Part shown: in pieces, positions 676 through 61,576 of the stretch
Position numbering within the stretch: the first letter of the stretch is position 1
How the letters are laid out: every line of letters starts with the position of its first letter
Origin: a virus
Length of the DNA: 64,000 nucleotides
IMG/VR virus record: IMGVR_UViG_3300045988_098886
Strand: one strand, 5' to 3'
Program-made: the position numbers and the translations under genes
Notes under the pieces: generated by a model
Told to the model about the DNA's origin: nothing
What the model saw: the letters and a program-made list of their open reading frames with translations, nothing else
Database searches by the model: none

Positions 676-787
676 AAGAAAAAACAGATGTGCATTTTTA
701 CAACATTCTATGGCGATTGTTTTTAAAAATTTGCTGTTGCACATCTTTGTAATCAATTAACAACTAAAATCAAAACACAATGGTAAG

Positions 788-860: not shown

Positions 861-871
861 AATTTGGGAGA

Positions 872-1477: not shown

Positions 1478-1704
1478 TAGTGTTGATATTTACGGATTCT
1501 ACACTTGCAATCAGGGTCATGAACTACTCCCAGAGCCCTTGTACTACCACTACCTGTGGTAAATGAAATATACGTATGACCACTGTATTCAAATTTTCCA
1601 ACTCTTGTTGAATATGCTTGAACTTTAATAACAGAGTATTGCGGCTCAACTCTAGTACATCCTACTAAGGATATAATAGCTAGCAGATAAATTACCTTCC
1701 TCAT
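1477..1704 (-). CDS. small lipoprotein
   Basis: N-terminus MRKVIYLLAIISLVGC has a signal peptide plus a lipobox-like LVGC. Confidence 0.6.
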   Translation of the reverse strand: MRKVIYLLAIISLVGCTRVEPQYSVIKVQAYSTRVGKFEYSGHTYISFTTGSGSTRALGVVHDPDCKCRIRKYQH

Positions 1705-1738
1705 AATATTAATCTTTAATTAATAACTTATTTAATTG

Positions 1739-1810
1739 TGGGACGAGAGGGCTTCGAACCCCGACGCCAGGCTCTTCAGGCCTGCGCTCTACCAACTGAG
1801 CTATCGTCCC
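1739..1810 (-). tRNA. tRNA-Phe (GAA)
   Basis: GGGACGA-UA-GCUC-AGUUGGUA-GAGC-G-CAGGC-CUGAAGA-GCCUG...UUCGAAG...UCGUCCC-A; canonical cloverleaf. Confidence 0.9.
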
Positions 1811-2035
1811 ATTTCCTGTAGACATCACAATCTCTTTTTTAGTCTACAGGTTGCTCTCTATCCTCCCATATTCTGGGATTTCACACTATTGTTTGCGGAT
1901 TAGGTTCGTGTTTCCTCTTACCTTTTGGTACCTTTGAGAGCTTTCCGTACTTATTTATAGAATTATAAGTTGGGCTTTGCTGTACCTAATCCTTGTTAGA
2001 AATTACCTATCTACTTAATCTTTACCTAACCGCTG
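1811..2035 (-). ncRNA. candidate structured non-coding RNA between the Ro60-like gene and tRNA-Phe
   Basis: 225 nt with no ORF. On the minus strand there is a 9-bp long-range helix GGAUUAGGU...ACCUAAUCC (1985-1993 pairs with 1897-1905). A 9-bp hairpin CCUGUAGAC/GUCUACAGG (1815-1823 with 1842-1850) sits directly 5' of tRNA-Phe. Confidence 0.25.
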
Positions 2036-3757
2036 TTAGAGAGTAAGCATATTCAATAATTCTTGATTCATTGCTGCTTGGAACAATTCCAGAGCATTCT
2101 TTGGAATACTTTCAACAGGTGTTTTACCAGTAAGGAATGCAATTCCCGCGGGGTCAAGTCCACTCATGTAGAAAGTGTAATTGTCATCACAAAGTGATTC
2201 GAACTTAGGTCTGATGTTGCTCGAATAGAAACCATTAGGAATATCCCAAAGTACCATTACAAAGTTATCAACATACTCTTTAGAGAATCTTGTTCCCAGA
2301 AGTTCACGGAATCTTTCAAATACTGTTTTGTCTCTTCCGGCAGAGTTGAACTCACCATCAGAAATACAGAGGATTCCAGTTGGGAAATCTTCCTCTTTAT
2401 ATCCCTTATCTCTAAGTTGGATAAAGAGTTCAGCCACGGATAACAGATTGGTTGAACACCAACCGTCTCCACTGAATTTGGTGAATTTCTCATAGGGAGT
2501 ATCACCTTGCCACTGTTTCATTAAGCACCTGTCGGAGAACTCAAGGACAGTATTGGCAAATTTCCCTTCGAGTAAGTAAGAGAAATACAGAGCGATTGAT
2601 TTCGCTACATGATAAGCACTTACTTCAAGACCTGCGGCTTTACAAGTCATAGAGCCAGATGTATCAAGAACAGCAATAAGATTAGTCTTGCGATTCATAT
2701 CTTGTTTAGCTGTTTCAATAAGAGACATAAACTGCTTATTAACAGTGTCTATCTGGTAAGGTTTCAGAGCTGTTTTTCTCCCATTATAACAATCGTTATC
2801 AGGGAACAGTTCATATACAAATCCAGTGAATTTGGCTACTGGTTTTGCTGCTAACCACTCTTCGTATGCTTCGGTAAGATTGTGATTCTCCAAGAACTTA
2901 CTACTAGCAAGTTTTGATAGTGCTCTACCAGCAATCGAATTGAAATCAAGATTTAGATAGTCTTGACGGCTAATTGCCTGCTGCCATTTATGAGCATTAC
3001 CAGATGCTTTAAGTTCACGATACATTTTATATGCACGCCACTTACCTTCCTCTGCTTCGCCATAGTCGAATATTTCTTTCACGATTTTCTTAGCAATAAA
3101 GTTATTGCTTTGAGAACGTAAAGAAGTACACTTTTTTAATGGTTTGATTTGTGGAAGATACTTTCTCACCAAGTTGGTTTGACCATCGTCAGCTAAACCA
3201 CCGACAATAAACTTAATGATGTATTTCCAATCCAGAACTTTATTGACTGCACCATTGTATTCAAGGTCTAATCTTAATATTTCAAAGATGTCGTCCCAAG
3301 AACCAGCTGTAATGAAGACAGGCAAATTCTTTTTAAATACTTTTGGGTGTGTTGTGGCAAGCCAGATAATTCTCATGAAGAACTCGGATTTAAGTCCTTG
3401 TCCTCTTTGAACTCCTAATTTCTTACCTGTAAAGAGTTTTGGATTTCGTGTAATCAAACGGATGTACACTGTTTCTTTGATTGTTATTAAAGGGTCAACT
3501 GCCCACAATCTTTCCATAGTTGATGCGACTTCGTGAAACTCTCTAGGTTTCCTGTAGTTTCCAACGGCTGCGAAGTCGTCAACAAATACATTACCTGACG
3601 TATCATACTTCAAACTTCCATTACCAGAAGTTGTTTCATGTTCCATTTTATATGCTTCCCTTTGGAAGATATTTTCAAACTTGGGAGCATTTACTCCCGA
3701 ACCTTTAGTGACTTTAGGAGTCACTTCATAAATTGATGTTCTTTTTCTGTCAAACAT
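2036..3757 (-). CDS. DUF2828/TROVE-like N-terminal domain + C-terminal vWA (MIDAS) protein, Ro60-like architecture
   Basis: N-terminal TTSGNGSLKYDTSGNVFVDDF matches the TxNGxxxYxTSGNxxxDxF signature of DUF2828/TROVE-type proteins. C-terminal LIAVLDTSGSMT (DxSxS MIDAS) ... CISDGEFN is typical of vWA. Confidence 0.7.
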   Translation of the reverse strand: MFDRKRTSIYEVTPKVTKGSGVNAPKFENIFQREAYKMEHETTSGNGSLKYDTSGNVFVDDFAAVGNYRKPREFHEVASTMERLWAVDPLITIKETVYIRLITRNPKLFTGKKLGVQRGQGLKSEFFMRIIWLATTHPKVFKKNLPVFITAGSWDDIFEILRLDLEYNGAVNKVLDWKYIIKFIVGGLADDGQTNLVRKYLPQIKPLKKCTSLRSQSNNFIAKKIVKEIFDYGEAEEGKWRAYKMYRELKASGNAHKWQQAISRQDYLNLDFNSIAGRALSKLASSKFLENHNLTEAYEEWLAAKPVAKFTGFVYELFPDNDCYNGRKTALKPYQIDTVNKQFMSLIETAKQDMNRKTNLIAVLDTSGSMTCKAAGLEVSAYHVAKSIALYFSYLLEGKFANTVLEFSDRCLMKQWQGDTPYEKFTKFSGDGWCSTNLLSVAELFIQLRDKGYKEEDFPTGILCISDGEFNSAGRDKTVFERFRELLGTRFSKEYVDNFVMVLWDIPNGFYSSNIRPKFESLCDDNYTFYMSGLDPAGIAFLTGKTPVESIPKNALELFQAAMNQELLNMLTL

Positions 3758-3786
3758 ATTCAGGTTAATTTAAACATTTTACATAG

Positions 3787-3872
3787 TAGCTCCACCCGGA
3801 ATCGAACCGGGACGGCCCTTTCGGACCATCAGATTTTAAGTCTGACGCGTCTACCAATTCCGCCATAGAGCC
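3787..3872 (-). tRNA. tRNA-Leu (TAA), class II
   Basis: Acceptor GGCUCUA/UGGAGCU with G-U pairs; UGGCGGAAUUGGUAGACGC D region; anticodon arm UCAGA-CUUAAAA-UCUGA; variable arm GGUCC-GAAA-GGGCC; T arm CCCGG-UUCGAUU-CCGGG. Confidence 0.85.
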
Positions 3873-3883
3873 ATCCTTATTTT

Positions 3884-4015
3884 TTAGAAGCAATCATCGT
3901 CTGTATTGTCATTAGTTACATAATCAATCATTGCACCTGCAAGTATGACTAATCCAAATGAAACCAATAGAGATAAAATAAATATTATGACTACTCCTAG
4001 TATAAATTCTGCCAT
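3884..4015 (-). CDS. 43-aa single-pass membrane peptide
   Basis: Own translation: MAEFILGVVIIFILSLLVSFGLVILAGAMIDYVTNDNTDDDCF. A promoter box lies upstream. It is below the ORF-track length cut-off. Confidence 0.4.
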   Translation of the reverse strand: MAEFILGVVIIFILSLLVSFGLVILAGAMIDYVTNDNTDDDCF

Positions 4016-4041
4016 ACTTTTTCCTTTCTGATTAAGTGATG

Positions 4042-4049
4042 CAAAGATA
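4042..4049 (-). promoter_or_regulatory. Bacteroides-type -7 box (TATCTTTG on minus strand)
   Basis: Plus-strand CAAAGATA, 27 nt upstream of the ATG at 4015. Confidence 0.35.
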
Positions 4050-4139
4050 CTACAAAAAACTGAGCCTACAAACCTTTATTAGTTAAAATTTGTAAATTCT
4101 TCTTCATTTATTATGAGTTAGATTTATTTTGCTTATTTC

Positions 4140-4247
4140 TTAGTTATCTTTAAATATTTTAGTTGATAACCAACAAATAAAGCTAAATCCGGCTGCTATT
4201 GCTGCCATACAGAGAGTTCCTTGAAGAAAATAAATTATAAAATCCAT
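4140..4247 (-). CDS. 35-aa hydrophobic peptide
   Basis: Own translation: MDFIIYFLQGTLCMAAIAAGFSFICWLSTKIFKDN. There is a 1-nt gap to the upstream mini-ORF. Confidence 0.3.
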   Translation of the reverse strand: MDFIIYFLQGTLCMAAIAAGFSFICWLSTKIFKDN

Positions 4248-4248
4248 A

Positions 4249-4332
4249 TTATATTCCTTTCTTCCATTTAACATACAAGATAGCCAATCCGTATAAAATC
4301 GGAAAGGCTATCATACCATAAATAAACTCCAT
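4249..4332 (-). CDS. 27-aa hydrophobic peptide
   Basis: Own translation: MEFIYGMIAFPILYGLAILYVKWKKGI. Confidence 0.25.
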   Translation of the reverse strand: MEFIYGMIAFPILYGLAILYVKWKKGI

Positions 4333-4398
4333 TTTAGTTTGGTGTACTAAATATGAAGCAAACAATCAATATCACGCATATTACCGTGAGGAGTCCCA

Positions 4399-4749
4399 TT
4401 ACACTTCAACAATTTGAGATTTCATGCAGATATTCGGAGTACTGAGAACAGCGTATGCTTGTGCACTACCGACTCCTACCATTTTGACCTTTACACAGTC
4501 AGAATCAACAACAATAGGTGTAACATCATCACCATATTGGTCAGTGTCAACTGTTACAGCAGCAACTCCCAATTCAGAAGAGATGTGACCACAAATATCA
4601 GAAAGAACTTCCGGAAATGAATCATTGACCAGAATACATTCGAGCATTCCGTTCTGTGATATAACAGCCACCACCGGAGAATCGTTACTTACTTCAATTG
4701 CCAATTTGTTTTCACCTTCTTGTACCTTTGCAAATTCTAATTTCTTCAT
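4399..4749 (-). CDS. hypothetical protein (116 aa, acidic)
   Basis: ORF on the coding strand; no motif recognised. Confidence 0.6.
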   Translation of the reverse strand: MKKLEFAKVQEGENKLAIEVSNDSPVVAVISQNGMLECILVNDSFPEVLSDICGHISSELGVAAVTVDTDQYGDDVTPIVVDSDCVKVKMVGVGSAQAYAVLSTPNICMKSQIVEV

Positions 4750-4771
4750 CTTTAAAATATGATTTTATGGA

Positions 4772-4927
4772 TTAATAAATGTCGTTTTCAAGTTGTGCAG
4801 ATACACATACTTGCTCAATATCATAGTCAGGATTTTTCTGAGCTATTTCAATTGCAGATTTCACCACTTCGTTGAGACACCCATGTTCTTGAGCGTTCTC
4901 CAACATTCTTTCAATGATTCCGTTCAT
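4772..4927 (-). CDS. hypothetical 51-aa protein
   Basis: Own translation: MNGIIERMLENAQEHGCLNEVVKSAIEIAQKNPDYDIEQVCVSAQLENDIY. An ATGA start/stop overlap with the upstream gene (4924-4927) suggests translational coupling. Confidence 0.4.
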   Translation of the reverse strand: MNGIIERMLENAQEHGCLNEVVKSAIEIAQKNPDYDIEQVCVSAQLENDIY

Positions 4928-5175
4928 AGTTTAATTAGTGTTCCTTTTGATAAGATTTTAACTTTATTGGAAAAACACACAGCAGATATAGGAGCTGCGA
5001 GAAGAGTAGTATATGCCCTGCCCATAGGCTCACCTATTGGGATAATAATGTCTTTATATCTTTGTACAACATCCCCAGGCCTTAAATCCTCACTGTGCCA
5101 ACTAAGAATTTCCGCCACGTCTCCGTCCTTCATATCTGCAAGGCAACTTACTTGAGAGTCTGATACTTTAGCCAT
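4924..5175 (-). CDS. hypothetical protein (83 aa)
   Basis: ORF on the coding strand, overlapping both neighbours by a few nt. Confidence 0.6.
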   Translation of the reverse strand: MAKVSDSQVSCLADMKDGDVAEILSWHSEDLRPGDVVQRYKDIIIPIGEPMGRAYTTLLAAPISAVCFSNKVKILSKGTLIKL

Positions 5176-5740
5176 TTAGTTTACACTGTTTAATGATTTC
5201 TTTAGTAATAATTCCGCCTAATGCACGAGATGCTTTATCGATTGCGTCGAGATTGAATTCATCTTTATCGAATTTGAATTGAATCCATGTTGGCTCATTT
5301 GGTCTATAGTCTAAGTATGTTTTACATTTTTTAGTTCCTAAGACTTCATGTACCATATCAAGAATACGCTCTCCTGCTTTCTTAGTTCTTACAAATCCAG
5401 ATAAGTCATATCCAACACCTCTAGAGCTCCAATATTCTCCTTCTTCTGGACGCTCATCCTTAGGCATCCAATGCCAACTTGGAATACCAATTCTTGGATG
5501 AGGAATACGGATTGCTTGTTCCATTACATATTCAGAACGAGGATTCTCTGGGTCTTCTGGATAAGCAGCGTATTCACAAGTCGAATAGACAGTTGAACCT
5601 CTTACTTCAAAGTGTAAGCCACAATGTCTACAAGTTGCAGAAGATAGCCCTCCTCCAGATACACAACTTCCTCTTGCTGCATCACATCCACAGTTCGGAC
5701 AACCAAACTGTTCAAAATCAGAATATAATATTGATAACAT
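5168..5740 (-). CDS. zinc-ribbon protein (190 aa)
   Basis: N-terminal CPNCGC...CRHCG four-Cys ribbon; the rest is unrecognised. Confidence 0.65.
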   Translation of the reverse strand: MLSILYSDFEQFGCPNCGCDAARGSCVSGGGLSSATCRHCGLHFEVRGSTVYSTCEYAAYPEDPENPRSEYVMEQAIRIPHPRIGIPSWHWMPKDERPEEGEYWSSRGVGYDLSGFVRTKKAGERILDMVHEVLGTKKCKTYLDYRPNEPTWIQFKFDKDEFNLDAIDKASRALGGIITKEIIKQCKLNG

Positions 5741-6039
5741 TAGTAATTTGATTTAAATACAACTTCTTTGAAAGCTACATATACTTTATCATCTTGTTCA
5801 ACAAGGCAATCATTCTCCTCTAAGAACTTAGTGATAAAGTATGTAGGAATATCATAGTTATCAGTCACAAACATATCACGTTCTTTATCAAAGTGATAAC
5901 GTTCATGTCTTTCAAGCCGAGTAGGATTTCCATTAAGAGTAATCTCACCAGACAAAGGATTGTCTTTATCTGGCTTGATTCCCTTTATATAGATTGAATA
6001 CTTGGCATCCGGCAAATAAACTTGCTGAATTACACTCAC
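5740..6039 (-). CDS. hypothetical protein (99 aa)
   Basis: ORF on the coding strand, abutting its neighbours. Confidence 0.6.
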   Translation of the reverse strand: MSVIQQVYLPDAKYSIYIKGIKPDKDNPLSGEITLNGNPTRLERHERYHFDKERDMFVTDNYDIPTYFITKFLEENDCLVEQDDKVYVAFKEVVFKSNY

Positions 6040-6483
6040 TTACACTTCCTCCCAAGTAATTGTTACAACTTTCTTCAGGATTCTGTAGTCTCCAGTCTCT
6101 TTAAGAACAGAGATTGCCTTTTCAATCAAGTCCTCTTGGTCCATGATTTCCGGCTGTTGAGTGTTTATGGGAGTTTCGGAAGCAGCCATTTCTGCCTTCT
6201 TTTCTCTGCTACGCTTATTCAGCTCATTAGCTTTTTGTCTGTATTCCTTGAGATAGTTCTCCACTCTTCCAATGTAAACTGGGTCATTTGGAAGTTTGTA
6301 TCCTGATTTTGTTGCTTCGAACAACCCAAACTCTTGAGCAGTTGTGGAATATGTAGGAAGACCAGGCAGGATTCCCTTCAACAAGGTCGAAAGTTCACTA
6401 AGGGTAAAGATTTTACCTCTGTTCTCGTCTCTTACCATGTTGTACTTTCTACAAATCTCTTTTGCATCGTTTTTCTTTCCCAT
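6040..6483 (-). CDS. hypothetical protein (147 aa)
   Basis: ORF on the coding strand, abutting the next gene. Confidence 0.65.
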   Translation of the reverse strand: MGKKNDAKEICRKYNMVRDENRGKIFTLSELSTLLKGILPGLPTYSTTAQEFGLFEATKSGYKLPNDPVYIGRVENYLKEYRQKANELNKRSREKKAEMAASETPINTQQPEIMDQEDLIEKAISVLKETGDYRILKKVVTITWEEV

Positions 6484-6560
6484 AATCTTGAAATTTTTAG
6501 TTATTAATAAATTGAATTGATTTATTGTTGACTTAGAACTCTGTGTTCAGTGTGAGGTCT

Positions 6561-6758
6561 TTAAAATCCAAAACTCTTTAGTTGTTTATAATACCACTCA
6601 TGGTCGATTGATGCTTCATCTTGCTCTTGAACTGTATTGTAATAGTTCGCTAAGGTAATTTTCTTAGCAGAGTTCTTAGTGCTATGATAAGCCTTTTCAA
6701 TCGTCTTTAACAGTTTATCTTTCATCTCTCTGTATGTAAGGTTTCTAATGATTTGCAA
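6561..6758 (-). CDS. hypothetical protein (65 aa)
   Basis: ORF on the coding strand. Confidence 0.45.
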   Translation of the reverse strand: MQIIRNLTYREMKDKLLKTIEKAYHSTKNSAKKITLANYYNTVQEQDEASIDHEWYYKQLKSFGF

Positions 6759-6813
6759 CTACTTAGAAGAGCTAACCTAATTTACCATTAGAATAAAGGT
6801 ATAATTATGCAGT

Positions 6814-6857
6814 TATCTTTACGATAAACTTCTTACGGAATATCTTTACGATAAACT
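6814..6857. repeat. perfect 17-bp direct repeat TATCTTTACGATAAACT x2 (6814-6830, 6841-6857)
   Basis: Read directly from the sequence. The repeat is flanked by inverted TGCAGT (6808-6813) and ACTGCA (6855-6860). It lies in a non-coding region upstream of the 6758 gene start. Confidence 0.8.
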
Positions 6858-7084
6858 GCATACAGAATACCTCTATATTCAAATAATCCTTCAAACTGAA
6901 GGTTTTATTTGTTTTGCCATAGTTACGCTATGATTCGAATACTTTATAGTATTATCAACAGATTTAGATTAGCTAATACAAAGGATATCTGTACCTTTGT
7001 ATCCACTCGATATAGTTTAATTTCTGCGACCGAATCACAAGGTATCGGTAAGGAGATAAACTACTTACCTTAACCCGTCCTACA

Positions 7085-7237
7085 TCAATTTAAATATATA
7101 TTCTTCTTATTATCATAGATGCGAATCCATCTTGATATGTACTTGAAGTTGTTTTGTGAGCGAAACTTCCTAGCATCCTTCAGTTGGTTAAATGAACGTA
7201 TATGCTCGCCATCATCAAATCTACATGAATATCTCAT
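7085..7237 (-). CDS. possible 50-aa basic protein
   Basis: Own translation: MRYSCRFDDGEHIRSFNQLKDARKFRSQNNFKYISRWIRIYDNKKNIYLN. Short, with no supporting signals. Confidence 0.25.
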   Translation of the reverse strand: MRYSCRFDDGEHIRSFNQLKDARKFRSQNNFKYISRWIRIYDNKKNIYLN

Positions 7238-7258
7238 TTTGCTTTATAAATTTAGTTG

Positions 7259-7417
7259 TTATTTTACTATGTAAGGAGCTACTGTATATACAAACTTGAA
7301 TGCACTTCTTGCAAATGCTGATTCCAGTTTAGCCACTTCTGCTTCAAACGCAGCTTCTGCTGCCTCTCTAGTATCATATAACACGGAGAGATTATTAGTT
7401 ACAATATATTTCTTCAT
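7259..7417 (-). CDS. possible 52-aa protein
   Basis: Own translation: MKKYIVTNNLSVLYDTREAAEAAFEAEVAKLESAFARSAFKFVYTVAPYIVK. It starts 23 nt after the tmRNA 3' end. Confidence 0.35.
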   Translation of the reverse strand: MKKYIVTNNLSVLYDTREAAEAAFEAEVAKLESAFARSAFKFVYTVAPYIVK

Positions 7418-7439
7418 TGTTGTATGTATTTAAAGATTG

Positions 7440-7987
7440 TGGACCTGGGCGGAGTCGAACCGCCGTCCAAACAAAGTCCAATAATAGAATTTTACGTGTG
7501 TCTCTATTTTATTACATCAGCTGTTGAGTTCAGCATGTAGATAGTTTTACTAAGAAGCTGAGTGTTAATTCACCAATTACGTCTCCTCGTAAGGCTACGA
7601 CTTAGTTGTTCACAAACTACCAAACTGGGCTTGACCGAACGGTCGCTCCACCACTCCATTTACGTTGGAGAACGGATGATGTTTAGAGATTCGTCACACC
7701 TCATGGACCACATCTTCCATCTGCTTTATGACATTAGGAGATTTCAGCTTTACTAACCTTTGGCGTTCAAGTTAAGTGGGCTGCTCTATAATGCTTCTTC
7801 CCACACCTCTTCTGTTTCTAGGTCTCTCCCATTAACCCGACTTAGAGCTAATTTAATAGATAAGCCAGCAGCTTAGGCTGCCATTCTTACATCGCTTCTT
7901 TCAGCATTTATTGTTTTCCTTCGTTTACAGAGATTGCGCTCTACACGTTCTATTACCTTCTCTATGCTGTCAAAACCATACAGGCCC
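7440..7987 (-). ncRNA. ssrA: tmRNA (SsrA-like), about 548 nt
   Basis: 5' GGGCCUGUAUGGUUUUGACAGC and 3' GGAC-GGCGG-UUCGACU-CCGCC-CAGGUCC-A form a tRNA-Ala-like domain with a G3-U70 pair. The internal tag ORF is GCU GAA AGA AGC GAU GUA AGA AUG GCA GCC UAA (AERSDVRMAA). It is preceded by the A-rich AACAAUAAAU, and the stop codon sits in the loop of a GCAGC/GCUGC hairpin. Confidence 0.75.
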
Positions 7988-8118
7988 AGATAAAAGAAAG
8001 TAAGCCTTGGCATAGCAGGTGCTAGTAGGTGGCTATCCAAACTAACTATGCTGTACTTACGTTTTGTCCCGTTATTCTGTTTCTAGGATAACTAGCTTAC
8101 CCCATTAAGAAGAGATTC

Positions 8119-8424
8119 TTAGTCCTCTTTGTATTCAGCGTTCAATTCTTCAATGACTTCGTTGAGTTTATCAAGAATCAACTGACAATCGTCTTCCTCA
8201 ATCTTTGAGTCAACAATCTTTTCAATGATTTCTTTTGAACGTTCAGAATCGACATCATCGTCACCGAGAGATAAAAGTAATCTTTCTGTGCGGTCAGCAG
8301 AGGCCGCTTTGTCTTCTTCAGCATTTGCCTTTGCTAATCCAAGTACTGATAATATACGTTTCTCTCTGGCTTCTGCCAATGATTTACCTGTTTTCTTTTG
8401 TAAAATTGCTGATAATTTTTTCAT
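8119..8424 (-). CDS. hypothetical acidic coiled-coil protein (101 aa)
   Basis: ORF on the coding strand; Glu/Asp/Lys-rich. Confidence 0.6.
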   Translation of the reverse strand: MKKLSAILQKKTGKSLAEAREKRILSVLGLAKANAEEDKAASADRTERLLLSLGDDDVDSERSKEIIEKIVDSKIEEDDCQLILDKLNEVIEELNAEYKED

Positions 8425-8448
8425 GATGAAATATTTATTTGTTAATAT

Positions 8449-8778
8449 TTAAAACCTTACTTTAGCTTTTAAAGCTTTTTTGGCTTTTCTGTGATGAATT
8501 GGGAGTAGCATCCAAGCCATCCATGACCAACCACTTCCATTTCTATCTAGCACATCAATATCGAGATGATATAAATCTCTTCCAGAATAATGTGTATCCT
8601 TTCTAATGATTGTTGCAACTTTACCACAATATTTTTGCATTTCTAAGGTAAAGCACACTGCTTCTCCACAATAATCTGCACGATACTTAAAGATTTCTTT
8701 ACAATCTTTTCTAATATAGACTTTATCTCCTATCTCAAACTTTTGGAGATTTCCTTTTTCATTTCCTGGGTCTTCCAT
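8449..8778 (-). CDS. hypothetical protein, paralog of 8781-9065 (C-terminal KAKVRF)
   Basis: Shares the layout GDKVYI...W..W.LLP...KAKVRF-stop with its neighbour. The 3' ends carry an identical 16-nt stretch. Confidence 0.6.
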   Translation of the reverse strand: MEDPGNEKGNLQKFEIGDKVYIRKDCKEIFKYRADYCGEAVCFTLEMQKYCGKVATIIRKDTHYSGRDLYHLDIDVLDRNGSGWSWMAWMLLPIHHRKAKKALKAKVRF

Positions 8779-8780
8779 AA

Positions 8781-9065
8781 TTAAAATCTTACTTTAGCTT
8801 TTATGATTCTCCTTCTACTTTTGTTTTCAATACCTCGCATTGGGAGCCATACATATGAGTACTTACCATTAATGTCTTTGTATTTAACATATACGGAATT
8901 ATCTTTGTTATCTACGTCAAATATTTCGACATTTTTGTTTGCAACTCCTTCAAAGAAGTCTCTGTCCATAACAAAGTTCTCTTCGATTAAGTGATTATCA
9001 GAAGAGTTTTCATCAAACCATCCTAGTGATTTGACTTTTACTCTTTGTCCAGCTTTAAATACCAT
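8781..9065 (-). CDS. hypothetical protein, paralog of 8449-8778 (C-terminal KAKVRF)
   Basis: AGQRVKV...YVWLPMRG...IIKAKVRF-stop; tandem with 8449-8778. Confidence 0.6.
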   Translation of the reverse strand: MVFKAGQRVKVKSLGWFDENSSDNHLIEENFVMDRDFFEGVANKNVEIFDVDNKDNSVYVKYKDINGKYSYVWLPMRGIENKSRRRIIKAKVRF

Positions 9066-9236
9066 GATATTATGTTTTTAGTTAATAATGTTCGTCCTAT
9101 CTGTATTTATAGAGGCTTTAGACTCTCATACCTTTAAAGATATGGCTACATTAAACGGATGATTTGCCCTGTATTCACATACAAGACAAATCTTTACTAA
9201 TAATTTTAAAAAATGAAGTAACAACATGAATTCTTG

Positions 9237-9311
9237 AGGGAATGAAGAGATTCGAACTCTCAACCTTACCGTTCGTAGCGGTATGCTCTAATCCAATTGA
9301 GCTACATTCCC
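9237..9311 (-). tRNA. tRNA-Arg (ACG)
   Basis: GGGAAUG-UA-GCUC-AAUUGGAUUA-GAGC-A-UACCG-CUACGAA-CGGUA-AGGUU-GAGAG-UUCGAAU-CUCUU-CAUUCCC-U. Confidence 0.9.
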
Positions 9312-51291: not shown

Positions 51292-53319
51292 ATGGCAAAT
51301 TGGAGTAATTTAAAAACAACAATATCTAATATTGTTAAGAGTAACGGTACTCAAGCAATTACCGGAAATTCACTACAATCTGTACTATTAAACATGGTTA
51401 CATCTCTAGGAGAAAATTGTATGTTTGCAGGGGTAGCTACCCCTGCTACAACTCCTGGAACTCCAGACGGTAATGTCTTTTACATTACAACAGAAGCTGG
51501 AACATATACCAACTTTAATAATATAGTAGTAGCAGATGGAGAATTAGCAATTCTTATATGGAAAGGAGCTTGGACTAAAAGTAGTATGGCAATAGCCACT
51601 CAAGCTAAGATGGATGAAATTGACCAACATGTAAATGAGGTTAATACTAAACTGGATGAAATGCAAAAAGGTATGGAAGATGTATATGCCTACGGAGTTG
51701 AATGGGATTCTACAGTAGCTGACCCTACTCTTACTAGAATTGGTAATTTAACTCTGCATAAATCGTTACCTATTCAGTCACGACTAAAGGGCTGTGTTGC
51801 TAATGGAGGGACAATTAATTATTACCTCAATCCAGATGACTGGTCAAAGAAAGAAGATGGTACACCATCAGTATTAGATGGAACTGACGGAACTGTCAGA
51901 GTTGAAGTACCTCGATTCTGGGGAAAATCTGGAGTTGCAGGAACAAAAAGATGGGTTAAGATTTCTACTGTATGTATTGATAATACTTGGACAGAGATTC
52001 CAGCAATGTTAATAGATGCATATAGGTCTACAACAGATAACACTGTAACAGCAACACCTAAGTTAGTGTCAGTTGTGAATACTACTGCTGCATTTAGAGG
52101 TGGAGGAAATAGAACAGCTTATGATACTTATTTAGAAACTGATCCAGTTAGAACAGATTTAGGAAAACCAAGAACAGCAATGAATAGAGCAACTGCACGT
52201 ACTTGGGCAACTAATGCAGGTTCTGAGCTATTATGCTATGAATATTACAAATGGGTAATGTTTTGGTTGCCTGTAATTGAATATGCTACATTTAATATGC
52301 AAGCATCATTTAATGCAGACTTAACTTCCGAAGGGTTTCACCAAGGAGGATTAAGTGCAGGAGTAACAAACATGTCCAATTGGGAATTTTATAACGGATA
52401 TTATTCAGTATGTCCGTGTGGATACGCAAATGAATTAGGAAATTTCACAGGAGCTAAAGTAATTCCTTCTACTACGTGGGAATACGCGTCAACTGGTTTG
52501 ACGAATATGGCTTCTTATTCGAGAGATGCAGGTCAAGCTGATATGACCGCAGAAACAAATAAAGTCACAATTACAAACGTTAAAGGCACAAATAGATACT
52601 TATATAGAACTTGGGGATATCAAAATGGTTCTACAGTCTATACAGTGTCAGGATTGGCAGAGGGTCAAAATTTAATATTCTATACGGGAAGCACAACACT
52701 GGCAACAGTTACGGCTGATGGAGATGTTACAATAGATTGGCCTACTAACGTACTATCTGATAGATGTATTAAATCTTCTTTCACTGGAAGCTGTAATATT
52801 GTAATATCTATCAAGAGTGCATCTAACGTTAATGTACCAGTAACTCGTCCGGCCATGAGTATTGCAAGATATAGAGGATTTGAAAATATCTTCGGAGACT
52901 TATGGACAAATATTGAAGGAGTAATTATCCAAGGATATAAAGACGAGGGGACTGATAACTTCAACTGGAAGAATGTATATACAACTACAAATCCAGAAGA
53001 TTACGGAGAAACGGAAACTCAAAAAGCTAAAATGAAGCTAATTTCTAGCAGAGAAGTTCATAACGATGGTTACATCAAAGACTTTGACCTTCAAACTACT
53101 GGGGAAATAGTACCATGTGCTAATGGCGGGGGAAGTACTACCTATATGTGTGATTATCATTACACAGGAGGTAAAGACACTAGTCTAAGAACTCTCTTGC
53201 TTGGCGGCAGCGCTGATAACGGCGGTGATGCGGGCCTTGGTTCCTTCTATTCTGATGATGGGGTCGGCGATGCCGATGCCGCTGTGGGCTTCCGTACTTT
53301 GAACAAAATTGTAAATTAA
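51292..53319 (+). CDS. DGR target protein (tail fibre / receptor-binding candidate, 675 aa) with C-terminal C-type-lectin-fold-like variable region
   Basis: The C-terminus RTLLLGGSADNGGDAGLGSFYSDDGVGDADAAVGFRTLNKIVN is encoded by the VR. It follows the LxGGS...(variable)...GFR pattern of DGR CLec-type targets. Confidence 0.85.
   Translation: MANWSNLKTTISNIVKSNGTQAITGNSLQSVLLNMVTSLGENCMFAGVATPATTPGTPDGNVFYITTEAGTYTNFNNIVVADGELAILIWKGAWTKSSMAIATQAKMDEIDQHVNEVNTKLDEMQKGMEDVYAYGVEWDSTVADPTLTRIGNLTLHKSLPIQSRLKGCVANGGTINYYLNPDDWSKKEDGTPSVLDGTDGTVRVEVPRFWGKSGVAGTKRWVKISTVCIDNTWTEIPAMLIDAYRSTTDNTVTATPKLVSVVNTTAAFRGGGNRTAYDTYLETDPVRTDLGKPRTAMNRATARTWATNAGSELLCYEYYKWVMFWLPVIEYATFNMQASFNADLTSEGFHQGGLSAGVTNMSNWEFYNGYYSVCPCGYANELGNFTGAKVIPSTTWEYASTGLTNMASYSRDAGQADMTAETNKVTITNVKGTNRYLYRTWGYQNGSTVYTVSGLAEGQNLIFYTGSTTLATVTADGDVTIDWPTNVLSDRCIKSSFTGSCNIVISIKSASNVNVPVTRPAMSIARYRGFENIFGDLWTNIEGVIIQGYKDEGTDNFNWKNVYTTTNPEDYGETETQKAKMKLISSREVHNDGYIKDFDLQTTGEIVPCANGGGSTTYMCDYHYTGGKDTSLRTLLLGGSADNGGDAGLGSFYSDDGVGDADAAVGFRTLNKIVN
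53188..53292 (+). repeat. DGR variable repeat (VR)
   Basis: Aligns without gaps to 53390-53494 (offset 202). I counted 26 differences in 105 nt. Twenty-five of them fall where the TR has A; the one exception is G53232 versus T53434. Confidence 0.9.
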
Positions 53320-53389
53320 TTTCTCACAACATACCAGGGCACTATTTACCTTACCGGGTTGCAAGGGCAGCATAAAGTTTACTGTGAAC

Positions 53390-53494
53390 AAAAAACTCTT
53401 ACTTAGCAGCAACGCTAATAACAGCAGTAATGCTAGCCTTAGTTACTTCAATTCTAATAATGGAGTCAGCAATGCCAATGCCAATGTAGGCTTA
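53390..53494 (+). repeat. DGR template repeat (TR)
   Basis: Non-coding copy of the VR with 38 adenines, 25 of which are substituted in the VR. In the VR frame it reads KKLLLSSNANNSSNASLSYFNSNNGVSNANANVGLL (AAY-rich), as expected for a template. Confidence 0.9.
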
Positions 53495-53641
53495 TTATAT
53501 ATTTTCATTTGGATAATTTTGTTTTTAATATTTTGTCTAAATAGTGTCCTTGCCTCTTGGCAAAAAATAACGTAGTATTTAACATAAAAGGGTGTTAGTA
53601 GGTTAATTCTCGAAGTGCTCCCTATATAAATATATAAGACT

Positions 53642-54886
53642 TTGAAAAGAATAGGATATTTGCACGAGCAGGTATACAACCTGCCTAATATAGAACTTGC
53701 TGACAGAAAAGCAAGAAGACACAAATCAGTGAGATGGGGAATCCTAAAACATGATAAACATTGTGAAAAGGAGAATTTAAAGTTGGCAGAAACTTTGAGA
53801 AACTTAACATATAAAACCTCAAAGTATAGCACGTTTAAAATTTATGAGCCTAAGGAGAGATTAATCTTTAGGCTTCCATATTATCCTGATAGAATTACGC
53901 ATCATGCGATAATGAATATAATGGAACCAATATGGGTAAACATATTTATCAAACATACTTATTCTTGTATTAAAGACAGAGGAATACATGATGTTGCAAA
54001 GGACTTAAAGTACGTTTTGCAGAAATATCCAGAAGAAACTAAGTATTGTTTGAAAGTAGATGTTAGGAAATTTTATCCGTCTATTGACCATGATATACTG
54101 TACGAAATACTCCAAAAGAAAATAAAGGACAAGAAATTGCTAACTTTGTTAAAGGAGATAATATATTCGGCAGATGGAGTACCCATTGGAAACTATTTGT
54201 CTCAATTCTTTGCAAATTTATATCTTGCTTACTTTGACCACTGGGTTAAAGAAGAGCTTAAATGTAAATTCTATTTCAGGTATGCAGATGATATAGTTAT
54301 TTTAAGTGATAGTAAAGAATTTTTGAGAAGTGTTCTTCTATCTATGAAATTATATCTCCGCAATGTCTTAAAACTAGAGCTTAAACAAAATTATCAAATT
54401 TTTCCCGTAGACAGTAGAGGAATAGACTTTGTAGGTTACAGGTTCTTCCATACTCATGTACTGCTTAGAAAATCTATAAAAGTTAGATTATTTAGGCTAA
54501 TTAAAAGGTACAAGGATAAGAAAATTGATAGGATTGAACTAAGACGAAGAATGCAATCATACTTTGGATGGTTGAAGTTTTGTAATTCTAAAAATCTGCT
54601 CCATAAGATTCAGCTAGAGACTGGATTAAGATTTTCTAACTGGAATGGGAAGAAGGTAAATATTTCAAAATTTTATGGTAAGTATGTTCACATCGTAGAG
54701 GTGATGAACTACAATAAATACTTTAGAGTCCATTGTGTATACAATAATAAATCATATTATTTTGAAAGTAAGAATAAACAATTATTTTATTCTATACATA
54801 GATATTCATTACCTGTAAATTTTAAAATAACACCATATGTTAGACCCAAGAAGAATAGAAACAAACCTGCAACCCGAACCGATTGA
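53642..54886 (+). CDS. DGR-type reverse transcriptase (TTG start)
   Basis: VDVRKFYPSIDH; GVPIGNYLSQFFANLYL (the DGR-clade I/LGxxxSQ motif); FRYADDIVILS (YxDD). There is no in-frame ATG near the N-terminus, so the start is TTG at 53642. About 90 aa of basic C-terminal extension. Confidence 0.9.
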   Translation: MKRIGYLHEQVYNLPNIELADRKARRHKSVRWGILKHDKHCEKENLKLAETLRNLTYKTSKYSTFKIYEPKERLIFRLPYYPDRITHHAIMNIMEPIWVNIFIKHTYSCIKDRGIHDVAKDLKYVLQKYPEETKYCLKVDVRKFYPSIDHDILYEILQKKIKDKKLLTLLKEIIYSADGVPIGNYLSQFFANLYLAYFDHWVKEELKCKFYFRYADDIVILSDSKEFLRSVLLSMKLYLRNVLKLELKQNYQIFPVDSRGIDFVGYRFFHTHVLLRKSIKVRLFRLIKRYKDKKIDRIELRRRMQSYFGWLKFCNSKNLLHKIQLETGLRFSNWNGKKVNISKFYGKYVHIVEVMNYNKYFRVHCVYNNKSYYFESKNKQLFYSIHRYSLPVNFKITPYVRPKKNRNKPATRTD

Positions 54887-55211
54887 ATTGCTTGGAAATG
54901 GTACATATTACTACAATTACGATATAAAATCAGAAATTGTGTGCGTTCCACAAATGAATGGAAGCACAAAAGAAGAAGAAAGATGGAATTACATTCAGAT
55001 ACATTTAAGCGGAACGCCAGAATATAAAGCATGTGCTAGAGCAATAATTAGACAATATATTGATGAAGAATCAGAGTTCTCTATAATTAATGATTTCAAT
55101 GCACATCAATTAGGTATAAGAAAAGATGAGAAAGCATACTCTGAATATATAGAGTATATTAATTTAGTTTCAGAAATCAAATCAAAAATTAAGTCGGACT
55201 TTAATAAATAA
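54837..55211 (+). CDS. hypothetical protein (124 aa) overlapping the RT 3' end
   Basis: ORF overlapping the RT by 50 nt. Helical and acidic C-terminal half; it does not look like a basic Avd. Confidence 0.5.
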   Translation: MLDPRRIETNLQPEPIELLGNGTYYYNYDIKSEIVCVPQMNGSTKEEERWNYIQIHLSGTPEYKACARAIIRQYIDEESEFSIINDFNAHQLGIRKDEKAYSEYIEYINLVSEIKSKIKSDFNK

Positions 55212-58168: not shown

Positions 58169-61100
58169 ATGGAAAACGTTAGAGTAGACTCTCTCTTAGG
58201 AAACAAAAAAGTAATAGTTGGAAATCCCTATTCTGACATTGTATTAGAAACTCTAGGTAAAGTATATATAAAGTCAGGGAGAAATTGTAAACTATTAGAT
58301 GATGTTATAAAGGAACTAGCTATAATCACTGAAAAACCTCAGAAAGAAATATATGCTAAAACCATTATAGTAAATAGCATTGATGAGTTGGGGTCTCTCG
58401 ATTATCCGGGAGATGGCTACTTAATTTACAATTCCCTAAATAAGTCTTTATATATCTCATACGAAGATAAATATATAGCTTTAATAGAATCTGTTACAGA
58501 TACATCAGAAAGTTATGTAAAAAAGACAGGAGATTCAATGTCTGGACAATTAGAAATAACAGTGGATTCTTTTCCACCTCTTATTGTTCATTCTAAAAAA
58601 CTTGTAAGTAATCTCAATGCTAATTACCTTGAGAATTACTCTGCAAAAGACTTAGCTAAGAAAAAGGTTGATGAAGTAATCTCTGGAGACTGGGTATTTA
58701 CTGGAAGTAATATATCTAAAGCCAACTGGAGATTTTATAGAGATATAATAGTGGACGGGAGTGTTACTTCTCCGTTCTTTTCATCTGGATTCTCAGGCTC
58801 TGGTTGGAGAATTGATGCACAAACAAATACACTAACTATTGATTACTTGGTGGTTAGGAAAGCTATGCAAGTATATGAAATGGTGGTCAATAAAATCACC
58901 GCAACTAACGGTTCTCTTTGGGTATCAAATGCAAGTAAAGTGGAGGATTATGTTCTAGCTTACGAAAATACTACAACAGAGTTCTTGATTGAATTTAACA
59001 AGGCATATCAAGACGCTTCTGGTGGAACTATTTTTACAGAACTTGATGACCTTGCTCGGTCACTACTTACATCCTTGCTATCCCAGCGGACTGATATTAT
59101 CTTTACTGATAAAAATGTAAGGGCTTACATGGTTGGAGACACTTCGTGGCAATGTCCGTCTCTTTTGACCCATATTGTAGATGCTAAAGCATTAGTGGGT
59201 TCTGAACTATTTACTAATATAAATTTACTATGGGATAAGTCATTTCTTGATAGTATAAATATAGAAGACCCTCAAACTCCTGCAGCATTAGCTATTAACA
59301 ATTCAGCACAAGGAATAGATTTATTTGCAGAATCTGGGCCTGAATCTTATATGGAAATAGTATCTACTGATAATAAAAGTATTATAAAGAAACCATTATA
59401 TTATGATTATTTTTATGGTACTGAAAACATATATGTAGTCGAATTTGACAAAGATGAAATTCCTGTATTTAAGCCCGGAGACATTGTAAGGTGTCAGAAA
59501 TGGGACAATCAGAATATCAAATACTACGACGGAATAGTGCTGGCCCCTGTAGGATTACACTCTTTTGCTATACAATTAGCTAAATCTGTGTTTGATAAAT
59601 ATACCGAAATATCATACGATGAAAAGGGAAACATATCAGAAATCACAGAGGAATATAACGATAGTTTATATGATAGAACTTGGCGCCCATCAGATGATGA
59701 CCCTACTTGGGATGAGGAAGACCCACCCGTTGATGAGAAAGAAAGAAAGCTGGGAACAGTTGAAATAGGAGACAGCATAGTACAAGTTGGAAATATAAAA
59801 CCTGACTCTGGAAGACAGAATGCAATATACCTAACTTCTTCTGACGACCAAGCACCATATATAAATATATTGTCAGATTTAAATAGGCCTGACTACTCTG
59901 TACTTTATAAGATACCTAAGTATGATAAGGATGGAAATCCTATTACTAAGAAGGACGAAGATGGTAATTTTATAGAGTATGAATTCGAATACACGAAAAC
60001 AACTAAAGTAAGATTGGGAAATCTTGGTGGAATTATAGACTATACATTTCCTGCTAATAGGCAACCTAGGGGATACGGACTCTATGGTCAGAATGTATAT
60101 CTTACTGGAGAGTTTTATTTGAATAATGGAAAATCAATAGTAGATGTTTCACAAGATGGAATAATCCTTAAATATAAAAGAGCAGGATTGGAACTTTTAG
60201 ATTTATATGATGAACAGGGAAATCCTATATACTTAACCGATAAGGATGGCAATATTATAAAAGATGATAATGGAAACCCCGTTCAAAAGCAAGAAATAAA
60301 ACTTAATGCCGAGCAAATAAAAGTCGGAGATGAGGAAACCTATGCTTTGTTTAAAGTAATATATGAAAATGGAGAAAAGAAAATCTACCTTAATGCAGAT
60401 TTAATTCAAGCTAGTGAAATATATAATTTAAAGGAATCTGCTGATGCATCAGTAATTACTACTATTGACAGTTCGGTAAGCGAAACCCCAACTAATGCTG
60501 TAACTGATTGGACCTATGCAGCTAAATATTTCTTTCCAGAATATGGACAAACTCCTAACTGGAATGCTAATTATCATCCGGACGGAGGGGGAGATTTTTC
60601 TTCTAAGACAAACGGAACTTTTGAATTGACTACTCCAAGTACCGACTTTAATTCCTATATATTAACTAATAGGATAGAAGCAGTAGCAGCTACTATCGGA
60701 AAAGTTACTATGGAAATGACTGTAACTCAATTAACGTCTGATATAAGTAAATATGAAGTGGCTTTATTAGATTTGGAAAATCCAGGTAATTATTTCGTTA
60801 TTCCACTTATTTCTAACGATGGTGTTAATTTTAAATGGGAAAAAACGCTCAACGTAAAAATGGAAGGAGATTATGCTGTTGGTATACAAATTAAAAGTTC
60901 TGGAGTATCCGGAACTGATATATATAGTGCTCTTAAAGCTACTATAAGTGCAGAAGAAAAATCCTATTATTGGGCACTGTGGTCCGATGGTTCTGGAGTA
61001 TTAGCTGAGGAAAGGATACAATGGGATAATTTGGGAAATCTTAGCATAACTGCCTCTAAACTTACTGTGGATGATGGACGATATAAAATAGGATTGTATA

Positions 61101-61576
61101 GCTCTAATGATGGCTGCTATTTACAATGCTATGGAAGTAATAAGGAAAATCCTTATGCAAAAATTGGCTGTTCTTTTAATGCAAATTTTCAAAGATATCA
61201 AGGTTATCTGTCCTTGGCATCAGGACAAGGAGTTGGGGAGTCTTCAGACGGTCTTTATGCTTCTTTTAACGTTTTAACTATAGCAGATAGTTCAAATCCT
61301 ACCTTCCCTTCTCAAACTACTACTACAAGTGCATCAGGATATACTGTGTCTAGCACCAATTCTATTGGCTCGTTATCTACAATGTATATACATGACCAGG
61401 GTTTAAATTGTTTGTTTACATCAGGAAGTTCTGGAATAGTTTCAGCAGGATTTAGAAGAGGTAGAGTTCCTAATTTACAAGATGTGGACTTGGGAGATGT
61501 ATTTAGAATACCTCTTGGAGATATAGATAGAATATATAATGGGACAGCAGAAGTGCTAATGATTAAAACAGGATAA
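58169..61576 (+). CDS. tail fibre protein (1135 aa)
   Basis: KKTGDSMSGQLEI...SKKLVSNLNANYLENYSAKDL resembles the tGGtMtGpL...LnAd.ldG motif common in phage tail fibres. Large beta-rich ORF. Confidence 0.65.
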   Translation: MENVRVDSLLGNKKVIVGNPYSDIVLETLGKVYIKSGRNCKLLDDVIKELAIITEKPQKEIYAKTIIVNSIDELGSLDYPGDGYLIYNSLNKSLYISYEDKYIALIESVTDTSESYVKKTGDSMSGQLEITVDSFPPLIVHSKKLVSNLNANYLENYSAKDLAKKKVDEVISGDWVFTGSNISKANWRFYRDIIVDGSVTSPFFSSGFSGSGWRIDAQTNTLTIDYLVVRKAMQVYEMVVNKITATNGSLWVSNASKVEDYVLAYENTTTEFLIEFNKAYQDASGGTIFTELDDLARSLLTSLLSQRTDIIFTDKNVRAYMVGDTSWQCPSLLTHIVDAKALVGSELFTNINLLWDKSFLDSINIEDPQTPAALAINNSAQGIDLFAESGPESYMEIVSTDNKSIIKKPLYYDYFYGTENIYVVEFDKDEIPVFKPGDIVRCQKWDNQNIKYYDGIVLAPVGLHSFAIQLAKSVFDKYTEISYDEKGNISEITEEYNDSLYDRTWRPSDDDPTWDEEDPPVDEKERKLGTVEIGDSIVQVGNIKPDSGRQNAIYLTSSDDQAPYINILSDLNRPDYSVLYKIPKYDKDGNPITKKDEDGNFIEYEFEYTKTTKVRLGNLGGIIDYTFPANRQPRGYGLYGQNVYLTGEFYLNNGKSIVDVSQDGIILKYKRAGLELLDLYDEQGNPIYLTDKDGNIIKDDNGNPVQKQEIKLNAEQIKVGDEETYALFKVIYENGEKKIYLNADLIQASEIYNLKESADASVITTIDSSVSETPTNAVTDWTYAAKYFFPEYGQTPNWNANYHPDGGGDFSSKTNGTFELTTPSTDFNSYILTNRIEAVAATIGKVTMEMTVTQLTSDISKYEVALLDLENPGNYFVIPLISNDGVNFKWEKTLNVKMEGDYAVGIQIKSSGVSGTDIYSALKATISAEEKSYYWALWSDGSGVLAEERIQWDNLGNLSITASKLTVDDGRYKIGLYSSNDGCYLQCYGSNKENPYAKIGCSFNANFQRYQGYLSLASGQGVGESSDGLYASFNVLTIADSSNPTFPSQTTTTSASGYTVSSTNSIGSLSTMYIHDQGLNCLFTSGSSGIVSAGFRRGRVPNLQDVDLGDVFRIPLGDIDRIYNGTAEVLMIKTG

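Follow-up and report, generated by a model that had tools for sequence, protein, structure and literature searches.

Known systems and the element studied here

The closest described relatives of the element studied here are the diversity-generating retroelements (DGRs) of crAss-like phages. The DGR of crAssphage LMMB (Intestiviridae), published in 2020, has the order target gene, variable repeat (VR), template repeat (TR) and reverse transcriptase (RT) gene, lacks the accessory gene avd and encodes an RT of 'lineage 3' of Wu et al. 2018 (PMC7290462), a lineage of which the absence of avd is typical (PMC7290462). The DGRs of the Epsilon and Zeta crAss-like phages are also mostly devoid of avd, and their targets have a modelled C-terminal C-type lectin domain (PMC11054128, PMC12386605). 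Here we analyse a stretch of 64,000 nt (the window; one strand, 5′ to 3′) from IMG/VR record IMGVR_UViG_3300045988_098886, that is, 64 kb out of a genome of ca. 185 kb. We propose, with a probability of about 0.9, that it contains a functional DGR of the avd-less crAss-like lineage, aimed at the tail protein encoded by open reading frame (ORF) 51292–53319.

In the DGR of Bordetella phage BPP-1, the RT (bRT) needs the protein Avd for any activity, and the spacer begins with a stem-loop to which Avd binds, an arrangement also found in 207 of 278 Avd-bearing DGRs (bioRxiv 10.1101/2023.10.23.563531). The 'cPRT Stop' of BPP-1 consists of a duplex between an upstream segment, in avd, and spacer nucleotides 59–70, followed by a 2-bp hairpin and then by A-minor adenosines. 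Its primer strand (spacer nucleotides, Sp, 47–56) pairs with TR 117–129 immediately 5′ of the Stop strand and primes from A56 (bioRxiv 10.1101/2023.10.23.563531). The locus in the window has in common with BPP-1 the predicted RT fold, adenine-specific mutagenesis and a tail protein as target.

Repeat pair and reverse transcriptase

The VR occupies codons 633–667 of ORF 51292–53319 (translation ...LLLGGSADNGGDAGLGSFYSDDGVGDADAAVGFRT) and aligns without gaps, at an offset of 202 nt, with a non-coding TR that ends 148 nt upstream of the RT start. Twenty-five of the 38 TR adenines are replaced in the VR (19 by G, 4 by C and 2 by T), whereas 66 of the 67 non-adenine positions are identical (Fisher's exact test, p = 1.2e-13). 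The TR has adenines in the first six columns and the last column of the alignment, which leaves the exact limits of the repeat ambiguous. In a conservative core of 98 nt, from which these terminal TR-adenine columns were dropped (Table 1), 21 of 31 adenines and 1 of 67 non-adenines are changed (p = 6.7e-13). Machine alignment reproduced every count given in an earlier note on this DNA (25 of 38 and 66 of 67), together with the non-coding copy at +202 nt; the note had also taken the VR for the last 105 nt of the coding part, but eight further codons (RTLNKIVN) follow it before the end of the target gene.

The sole non-adenine mismatch, G53232 in the VR against T53434 in the TR, is private to the window genome, its closest relatives (L001, L002 and L015, with RTs 88–98 % identical) having T; the change is due either to ordinary point mutation or to a rare error of the RT at a U. 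The two repeats are the only 98-nt pair situated within 1 kb of each other that reaches 72 % identity in the window, and no second VR was found on either strand of the 64 kb.

The RT gene starts at 53642 and encodes the IGNYLSQ motif (residues 182–188; 54185–54205) and the YADD box (residues 214–217; 54281–54292), this start and both motifs having been named in the earlier note. Its TTG start is supported by the RT homologues, which begin at the same MKR..LHE N-terminus. The product matched RVT_1 (Pfam, E 3.7e-18) and phrog_1423 (PHROG, E 1.6e-115), and its best sequence match in PDB was the Bordetella phage bRT 8ub7 (E 2.9e-48, residues 6–326), with group II and retron RTs at about 1e-14. The same structure, 8ub7_A, was the best Foldseek match to an AlphaFold model of the RT (pLDDT 84.6), with a TM-score of 0.92, a root mean square deviation of 2.1 Å and 34 % identity. 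The NCBIfam models for group II, retron and DRT enzymes all remained far under their cut-offs, the best sub-threshold match being to a group II RT/maturase. Judged by sequence and fold comparison with solved structures, and by motifs and family models, the RT belongs to the DGR clade and not with the RTs of group II introns or retrons, in line with the placement that the earlier note had favoured.

Residues 327–414 of the RT (54620–54883) constitute a C-terminal extension without counterpart in bRT. In the AlphaFold model it is confidently folded, with a short helix, then three strands, another helix and one more strand, and a disordered basic tail at the end; it had no match in Pfam or PDB. 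The shorter RTs (341–346 aa) of the avd-less relatives cr52_1, cr6_1 and cr50_1 lack this extension.

Variation among related loci

A search of IMG/VR for relatives of the window RT returned 486 stretches, of which the best 80 (72–98 % identical, on contigs of 100–190 kb) were used. Around 65 of the fetched loci had enough DNA upstream of the RT for a comparison of layout, and 64, the window included, showed the succession VR, ca. 200 nt, TR, ca. 150 nt and RT, with adenine-specific mismatches. The 98-nt TR core was identical in 11 loci on distinct contigs from other samples. Pattern scans of viral and metagenome sequences brought to nine the number of genomes that have one identical TR but nine different VRs, the differences lying in TR-adenine columns. 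Among four genomes with an identical TR, the variable columns comprised 23 of the 38 adenine and 2 of the 67 non-adenine columns (p = 3.6e-11). The closest comparison was with L001, whose TR is identical to that of the window and which differs from it at 8 positions in the 2000 nt upstream of the VR and at none in the 350 nt downstream; its VR shows 14 differences, 13 of them at TR-adenine columns. This turnover of the VR between otherwise near-identical genomes argues that the DGR has evidently been active in recent times.

The same columns stand out in the proteins: in 15 full-length members of the 90 % cluster of the target, the columns with 6–9 different residues coincide with TR AAY codons. 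The size of this cluster was also considered as a sign of hypervariation and discarded as uninformative, because the target cluster has 1680 members but that of the RT 1466. Under a strict match, three long contigs (140–240 kb) contained the VR and TR alone, indicating one target per genome. Together, the class of the RT, the mismatch pattern and the differences among VRs bear out the central claim of the earlier note, a DGR diversifying the C-terminal VR of a tail protein.

Contigs of the relatives tend to break near this site. Fifteen of the 80 (L013, L016, L019, L026, L034, L035, L045, L052, L055, L059, L065, L068, L070, L076 and L079) end 1–970 nt upstream of the RT start, where ca. 1–2 would be expected by chance (binomial p ~6e-11), and many contig ends fall inside the VR or just past the TR. 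These are likely assembly breaks resulting from VR heterogeneity or from the VR/TR repeat.

Mutation spectrum

In 63 distinct VR/TR pairs of the family, the outcome at a TR adenine depended on its 3′ neighbour, and this dependence explains the family-wide excess of G among the replacements (1036 G, 363 T and 348 C). Where G followed the adenine, the VR had G in 95 % of cases (n = 473), and C or T were nearly nil. At four-fold degenerate third positions, where selection on the protein cannot choose the base, GTA changed to GTG in 98 %, GGA to GGG in 92 % and ACA to ACG in 88 %. The pattern points away from selection and to a misincorporation by this RT family that depends on context and is near-deterministic. 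The TR AAY codons had broad substitution spectra. In practice, TR AGY codons are almost always GGY (Gly) scaffold codons in the VR, and AAY codons are the diversified ones. The bRT of BPP-1, assayed in Escherichia coli, is also context-dependent, misincorporation of dC being dominant outside AAC (bioRxiv 10.1101/2025.08.18.670894); the context dependence of the present family has the same direction, but is far stronger than the rate of ca. 30 % seen there.

Conserved structures in the spacer RNA

The region between the VR and the RT contains strongly conserved non-coding blocks in the family alignment. Folding of the single window spacer was no better than that of shuffled sequences (z = 0.18), and the structure proposed here is purely comparative. 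A segment upstream of the TR (GGGCACUAUUUA) is complementary to one downstream of it (UAAAUAGUGUCC), and they would form a helix, a:a′, bracketing the TR. The 64 loci contain 12 sequence versions of this helix, each with 11–12 of the 12 pairs, and shuffled arms reached 12 pairs in 2 of 3200 trials. Five of the 12 pairs are changed on both sides, with a covariation score that was reached by none of 500 shuffles and was far lower in slid controls. Equivalent helices with unrelated sequences were found in LMMB, cr7_1, cr130_1, cr50_1 and Versailles. Some pairs are G·U wobbles, valid only in the + strand RNA.

The hairpin directly 3′ of strand a′ is paired in 29 of 29 sequences, with exchanges of GC to AU, CG to GC and CG to UA, compensatory at two of the three G–C pairs. 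Further downstream, the P-stem has 90 % of its cells paired and double changes at two pairs.

Homology between TR and VR ends at GGCTT (53489–53493). Beyond this point the VR-side flank is coding, and the TR-side flank, UUAUAUAUUU, is invariant and pairs with AAAUAUAUAA in an RNAalifold prediction. Both strands of this second helix, b:b′, are invariant within the close family, and across subfamilies it occurs in 15 sequence-distinct versions that are all complementary, for example UUAUACAU/AUGUAUAA, UUUAUAUAAUU/AAUUAUAUAAA, UUAAAAUU/AAUUUUAA, CUGAACCC/GGGUUAUCAG, UGAAAUUGU/GUAAUUUCA and UGUGAAU/AUUCACA. In several cases the automatic longest-helix search chose another segment or missed a bulged helix, and the pairing was assigned by eye. 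Strand b starts 0–3 nt past the end of homology in 12 of the 15 versions, that of cr130_1 being scored at +12, and b′ ends in A followed by G in 10 of 15. Directly 5′ of a′ no conserved complementarity to the 3′ end of the TR was found, that is, no nested primer site like that of BPP-1. Separately, locus L014 carries a tandem duplication of ca. 70 nt (~5930–6000) of the 3′ spacer half, extending from the hairpin through b′.

At gathering thresholds, Rfam gave no match to the spacer and no intron RNA domains or retron msr/msd. With relaxed thresholds, positions 53546–53637 aligned full-length to RT-17 (23.8 bits, E 0.011) and to RT-18 (23.2 bits), with which they share CCUUGCC-UCxU-GGCAAAA and UGGUAG...CGAA. 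Since the gathering threshold of RT-17 (RF03020) is 40.4 bits, the window spacer is to be regarded as a divergent homologue and not as a member by the Rfam criterion; the spacer of cr6_1, a crAss-like phage whose DGR is of the same lineage, passes with 44.5 bits. RT-17 and RT-18 were described as RNAs 'found nearby to RT genes', with their function left open and some guessed to be linked to DGRs (Weinberg et al. 2017, PMC5737381). Their models treat the ends corresponding to a′ and b′ as unpaired, whereas both would be paired in the structure proposed here.

The spacer shares with BPP-1 a TR-bracketing duplex followed by a short hairpin and adenosines, as in the cPRT Stop, with strand a as the analogue of the avd strand, and a stem-loop proximal to the RT. 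The locus differs from BPP-1 in lacking Avd, the Avd-binding stem-loop and a G+C-rich initiation of mutagenic homing (IMH) site, and in the additional domain of ca. 88 aa of its RT. The order of strands also differs, being a, b, a′, b′ (a pseudoknot) with the candidate primer at the 3′ end of the spacer, as opposed to the nested a, b, b′, a′ of BPP-1, and strand a, which abuts the TR in BPP-1, is here separated from it by 46 nt.

Comparison with the DGRs of other crAss-like phages

The window has 34 % G+C, a crAss-type TerL and a P22-like portal. Its TerL is ca. 29 % identical to those of classified Crassvirales and 49–53 % identical to those of unannotated gut phage contigs; the host of the element is a large crAss-like gut phage. 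A megablast search with the cassette against INPHARED phages gave no match, its relatives being found at the protein level only. The closest annotated RT is that of crAssphage LMMB, with 57.6 % identity over residues 1–411, the C-terminal extension included. The order target-VR, TR, RT is the same in both phages, avd is lacking in both, and the targets are homologous in their N-terminal and VR-bearing parts. The spacer of LMMB also has the same elements, namely a:a′, the hairpin, the A-run, UUGGUAG...CGAA and b:b′, although the sequences of the helices differ, through compensatory change. The contigs of the window lineage are of ca. 185 kb versus 98 kb for LMMB, and the window target has an extra beta domain of ca. 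130 aa.

The locus has in common with the Zeta and Epsilon DGRs a large crAss-like gut phage as host, a tail-fibre target with a C-terminal VR and, mostly, the absence of avd. The Zeta RTs have GxxxSQ (PMC12386605), as in the window, whereas those of Epsilon have GxxxSP (PMC11054128). Many Zeta genomes recode stop codons (PMC12386605), whereas the long ORFs of the window are open in the standard code. Among the relatives, L092 (cr7_1), L094 (cr52_1) and L095 (cr6_1) have 2–14 in-frame standard-code stops in the target and/or the RT, which indicates stop-codon recoding in these phages.

Search for an accessory protein

An avd gene is part of most DGRs, although it does not define every lineage. 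Avd was not found in the window. Among the Pfam matches listed for a batch of 57 window ORFs (the 25 most-matched families, with a sensitivity limit of E ~5e-5), none was to Avd, and Pfam gave no Avd in the target, the RT, the two flanking small ORFs or the two giant ORFs. Matches to Avd among window ORFs were likewise lacking in NCBIfam and PHROG. Directly 3′ of the TR, the site that Avd binds in BPP-1, there is no stem-loop; positions 53505–53537 are variable and U-rich, and lack a conserved stem, in keeping with the lack of Avd. The earlier note had called the DGR complete, which holds for its core parts (VR, TR and RT) but not for an avd gene in the window. The C-terminal extension of the RT may or may not compensate for Avd.

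Mechanism and alternative explanations

The anatomy of the repeats, the DGR-type RT, the VR turnover between near-identical genomes and the covarying helices around the TR, all of them observed, can be joined in the following model. A + strand RNA running from just past the target stop codon to the RT start would carry the invariant TR. By analogy with the cPRT Stop, helix a:a′, the hairpin and the A-run would dock on the RT and mark the far end of reverse transcription, and helix b:b′ would be the template:primer duplex that fixes the start of the complementary DNA (cDNA). The cDNA would then replace the VR at the 3′ end of ORF 51292–53319 and re-randomise about a dozen residues, mostly at TR AAY codons, in the presumed receptor-binding domain. 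Avd would not be needed. Helix b:b′ is a natural template:primer candidate because it would set the start exactly at the TR/VR boundary; even so, we hold this priming model tentatively, at close to an even chance. It would also be possible, though we put this somewhat below even, that the avd-less DGRs of crAss-like and related Bacteroidota phages share a cis RNA that is a permuted, pseudoknotted version of the BPP-1 DGR RNA, with the Stop duplex, hairpin, A-run and RT-binding stem kept and the primer strand moved to the 3′ end of the spacer.

Several observations weigh against a functional DGR working in this manner. No accessory protein was found in a window that covers about one third of the genome, while bRT depends on Avd for its activity. 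A G+C-rich IMH such as BPP-1 has is missing at the end of the homology, and mutated adenines reach to 6 nt from that end. The evidence for activity comes from comparison between genomes, and bears at most indirectly on hypervariation inside one population. Strand a lies 46 nt upstream of the TR core; were a:a′ the stop, a non-homologous tail would be left on the cDNA, which is not the case in BPP-1. Taken singly, the b:b′ helices are modestly better than shuffles (p 0.003–0.5), because their strands are A/U-rich. The fold of the VR domain is also unconfirmed (see below).

That the locus is not a DGR at all, but a duplication that arose by chance or recombination next to the RT of a group II intron or retron, can practically be dismissed. 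RVT_1 is a generic domain and the best sub-threshold NCBIfam match is to a group II enzyme, but in PDB the match of the RT to bRT is better by 34 orders of magnitude than that to any group II or retron RT, the mismatch asymmetry has a p of ~1e-13, and the Rfam search gave no RNA of either kind of element. The VR/TR alignment, the sequence match to bRT and the fold match to 8ub7_A already refute this explanation. It is also quite improbable, though less so, that the cassette once worked and is now inactive, the VR/TR pattern being a relic. The missing Avd and the mismatch at G53232 would fit such a fossil, and degraded cassettes are frequent in published crAss-like genomes (PMC7290462, PMC11054128). 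However, the RT ORF is uninterrupted, its catalytic motifs are all present and its predicted fold is confident, the TR is identical in 11 other loci while their VRs all differ at adenine columns, a genome with near-identical flanks differs at 13 such columns, and the spacer helices have been kept through compensatory change. An explanation with more in its favour, although still unlikely, is a DGR that works only with an accessory factor from elsewhere, be it a protein of the host or one, Avd-like or other, that is encoded in the two thirds of the genome outside the window. The dependence of bRT on Avd, the partial coverage of the ca. 185-kb genome and the presence of avd in some Zeta crAss-like phages (PMC12386605) would agree with this. 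Against it, avd was missing from the complete genomes of the closest annotated lineage in published analyses, the spacer lacks the stem-loop that is the Avd site in BPP-1, and the window ORFs gave no Avd match within the limit stated above.

The role of helix b:b′ is where the alternatives come closest. Instead of priming, it could act as a translational switch hiding the A/U-rich region upstream of the RT start, or as a closing stem of the spacer, with priming elsewhere; this has a sizeable chance, if short of even. Strand b′ ends 0–21 nt before the RT start, as would suit a switch, and the primer strand of BPP-1 is directly 5′ of the Stop strand and not at the 3′ end of the spacer. On the other hand, a purely translational element would have no reason to begin within 3 nt of the end of homology, as 12 of the 15 versions of b do. 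The A and G that end b′ in 10 of 15 versions resemble Sp A56-G57 of BPP-1, and the conserved complementarity to the TR 3′ end that priming directly 5′ of a′ would use was not found.

Target protein and neighbouring genes

The coordinates of the features of the locus are collected in Table 1.

Table 1. Features of the DGR locus, in window coordinates.
Feature	Coordinates	Strand	Remarks
Target gene, 675-aa tail protein	51292–53319	+	phrog_5302 'tail protein', E 1e-83
Variable repeat (VR)	53188–53292	+	residues 633–667 of target; core 53194–53291
Strand a (GGGCACTATTTA)	53337–53348	+	5′ strand of 12-bp TR-bracketing helix
Template repeat (TR), non-coding	53390–53494	+	core 53396–53493
Strand b (TTATATATTT)	53495–53504	+	starts 2 nt past last TR/VR-homologous base
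Strand a′ (TAAATAGTGTCC)	53538–53549	+	3′ strand of TR-bracketing helix
Hairpin UUGCC-UCUU-GGCAA, then A-run	53550–53567	+	directly 3′ of a′
P-stem GGGUG/CUCCC around near-invariant UUAGUAG...CGAA	53590–53622	+	candidate RT-binding stem-loop, RT-17/RT-18-like core
Strand b′ (AAATATATAA)	53628–53637	+	ends 4 nt before RT start codon; candidate primer strand
DGR reverse transcriptase, 414 aa, TTG start	53642–54886	+	RVT_1, phrog_1423, bRT match

Residues 133–387 and 521–675 of the target are homologous to the DGR target of crAssphage LMMB (QIN93297); BLASTP identity was 39 % over 133–365 (E 3e-42) and 32 % over 525–673 (E 5e-13). Residues ca. 388–520 (52453–52851) form a beta-rich insert within this homologous region, which is the only confidently modelled part of the target (residues ca. 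390–520, AlphaFold2 pLDDT 87–96). The VR domain, residues 585–675, had a pLDDT of ca. 24 when the full target was modelled with a 32-sequence alignment, and gave no Pfam or PDB sequence match in a profile search at E up to 10. A C-type lectin fold, as put forward in the earlier note, is plausible for this domain by homology to the LMMB target and other published crAss-like DGR targets, and stays unconfirmed by model or database match. The motif GFENIFGDLWTN and the ending of the VR in GFR resemble those of C-type-lectin DGR targets.

The target had been described as the last tail-fibre gene of its module, preceded by two giant fibre genes. ORF 58169–61576 (+ strand, 1135 aa), downstream of the DGR, matches tail-fibre PHROG phrog_33450 (E 3e-20), so the target is not the last fibre-like gene. 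The giant ORFs upstream may or may not encode fibres: in one of them a ConA-like lectin domain was the only match, and the second had none.

ORF 54837–55211 (+ strand, 124 aa, phrog_11557) and the final 50 nt of the RT gene overlap. Homologues in syntenic position 3′ of the RT occur in cr7_1, cr55_1, cr50_1 and the non-crAss Bacteroides phage Versailles, and the ORF was considered as a new DGR accessory gene. This was rejected: in L100, the homologue of the ORF comes immediately after a homologue of the target that has no DGR, with neither RT nor TR there, so that the gene is to be seen as accompanying the tail-protein gene instead of the retroelement. Its product is probably a tail-protein partner such as an assembly factor, and the TR and RT look as if they had been inserted between the target gene and this ORF.

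At the left end of the window, on the − strand, there is a tmRNA gene (7437–7987; Rfam RF00023, 75.1 bits against a threshold of 47, full model, with an insertion of ca. 159 nt), which ARAGORN did not call and in which the frame that follows the resume region gives AERSDVRMAA-stop. Around it lie six tRNA genes (Trp, Tyr, Pro, Phe, Leu and Arg; 418–9311, − strand). ORF 2036–3757 (− strand, 573 aa), adjoining tRNA-Leu (3786–3872), matches PHROG 850 'RNA-binding protein' (E 3.5e-32) and is probably the window ORF that gave a Pfam match to DUF2828.

Significance

As a DGR, the locus adds little to what is known, given 486 RT relatives in IMG/VR and the crAss-like phage DGRs described since 2020: it is ordinary and well preserved, the lineage of its phage is a documented one, and the comparative RNA model alone goes beyond published descriptions. 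The clade is, however, a natural data set for DGR RTs without Avd, since it has dozens of distinct homologous spacers with compensatory changes, and it offers a defined candidate start and stop of the cDNA together with a natural read-out of context-dependent adenine mutagenesis. If the model of a permuted primer is true, the RT and an RNA of ca. 320 nt would be a two-part system in which to test Avd-independent targeted mutagenesis. Likewise, if the RNA is permuted as proposed, the RT-17 and RT-18 motifs would be the priming and docking RNA of an Avd-independent DGR RT, and priming would be coupled to translation of the RT, since b′ ends a few bases before its start codon.

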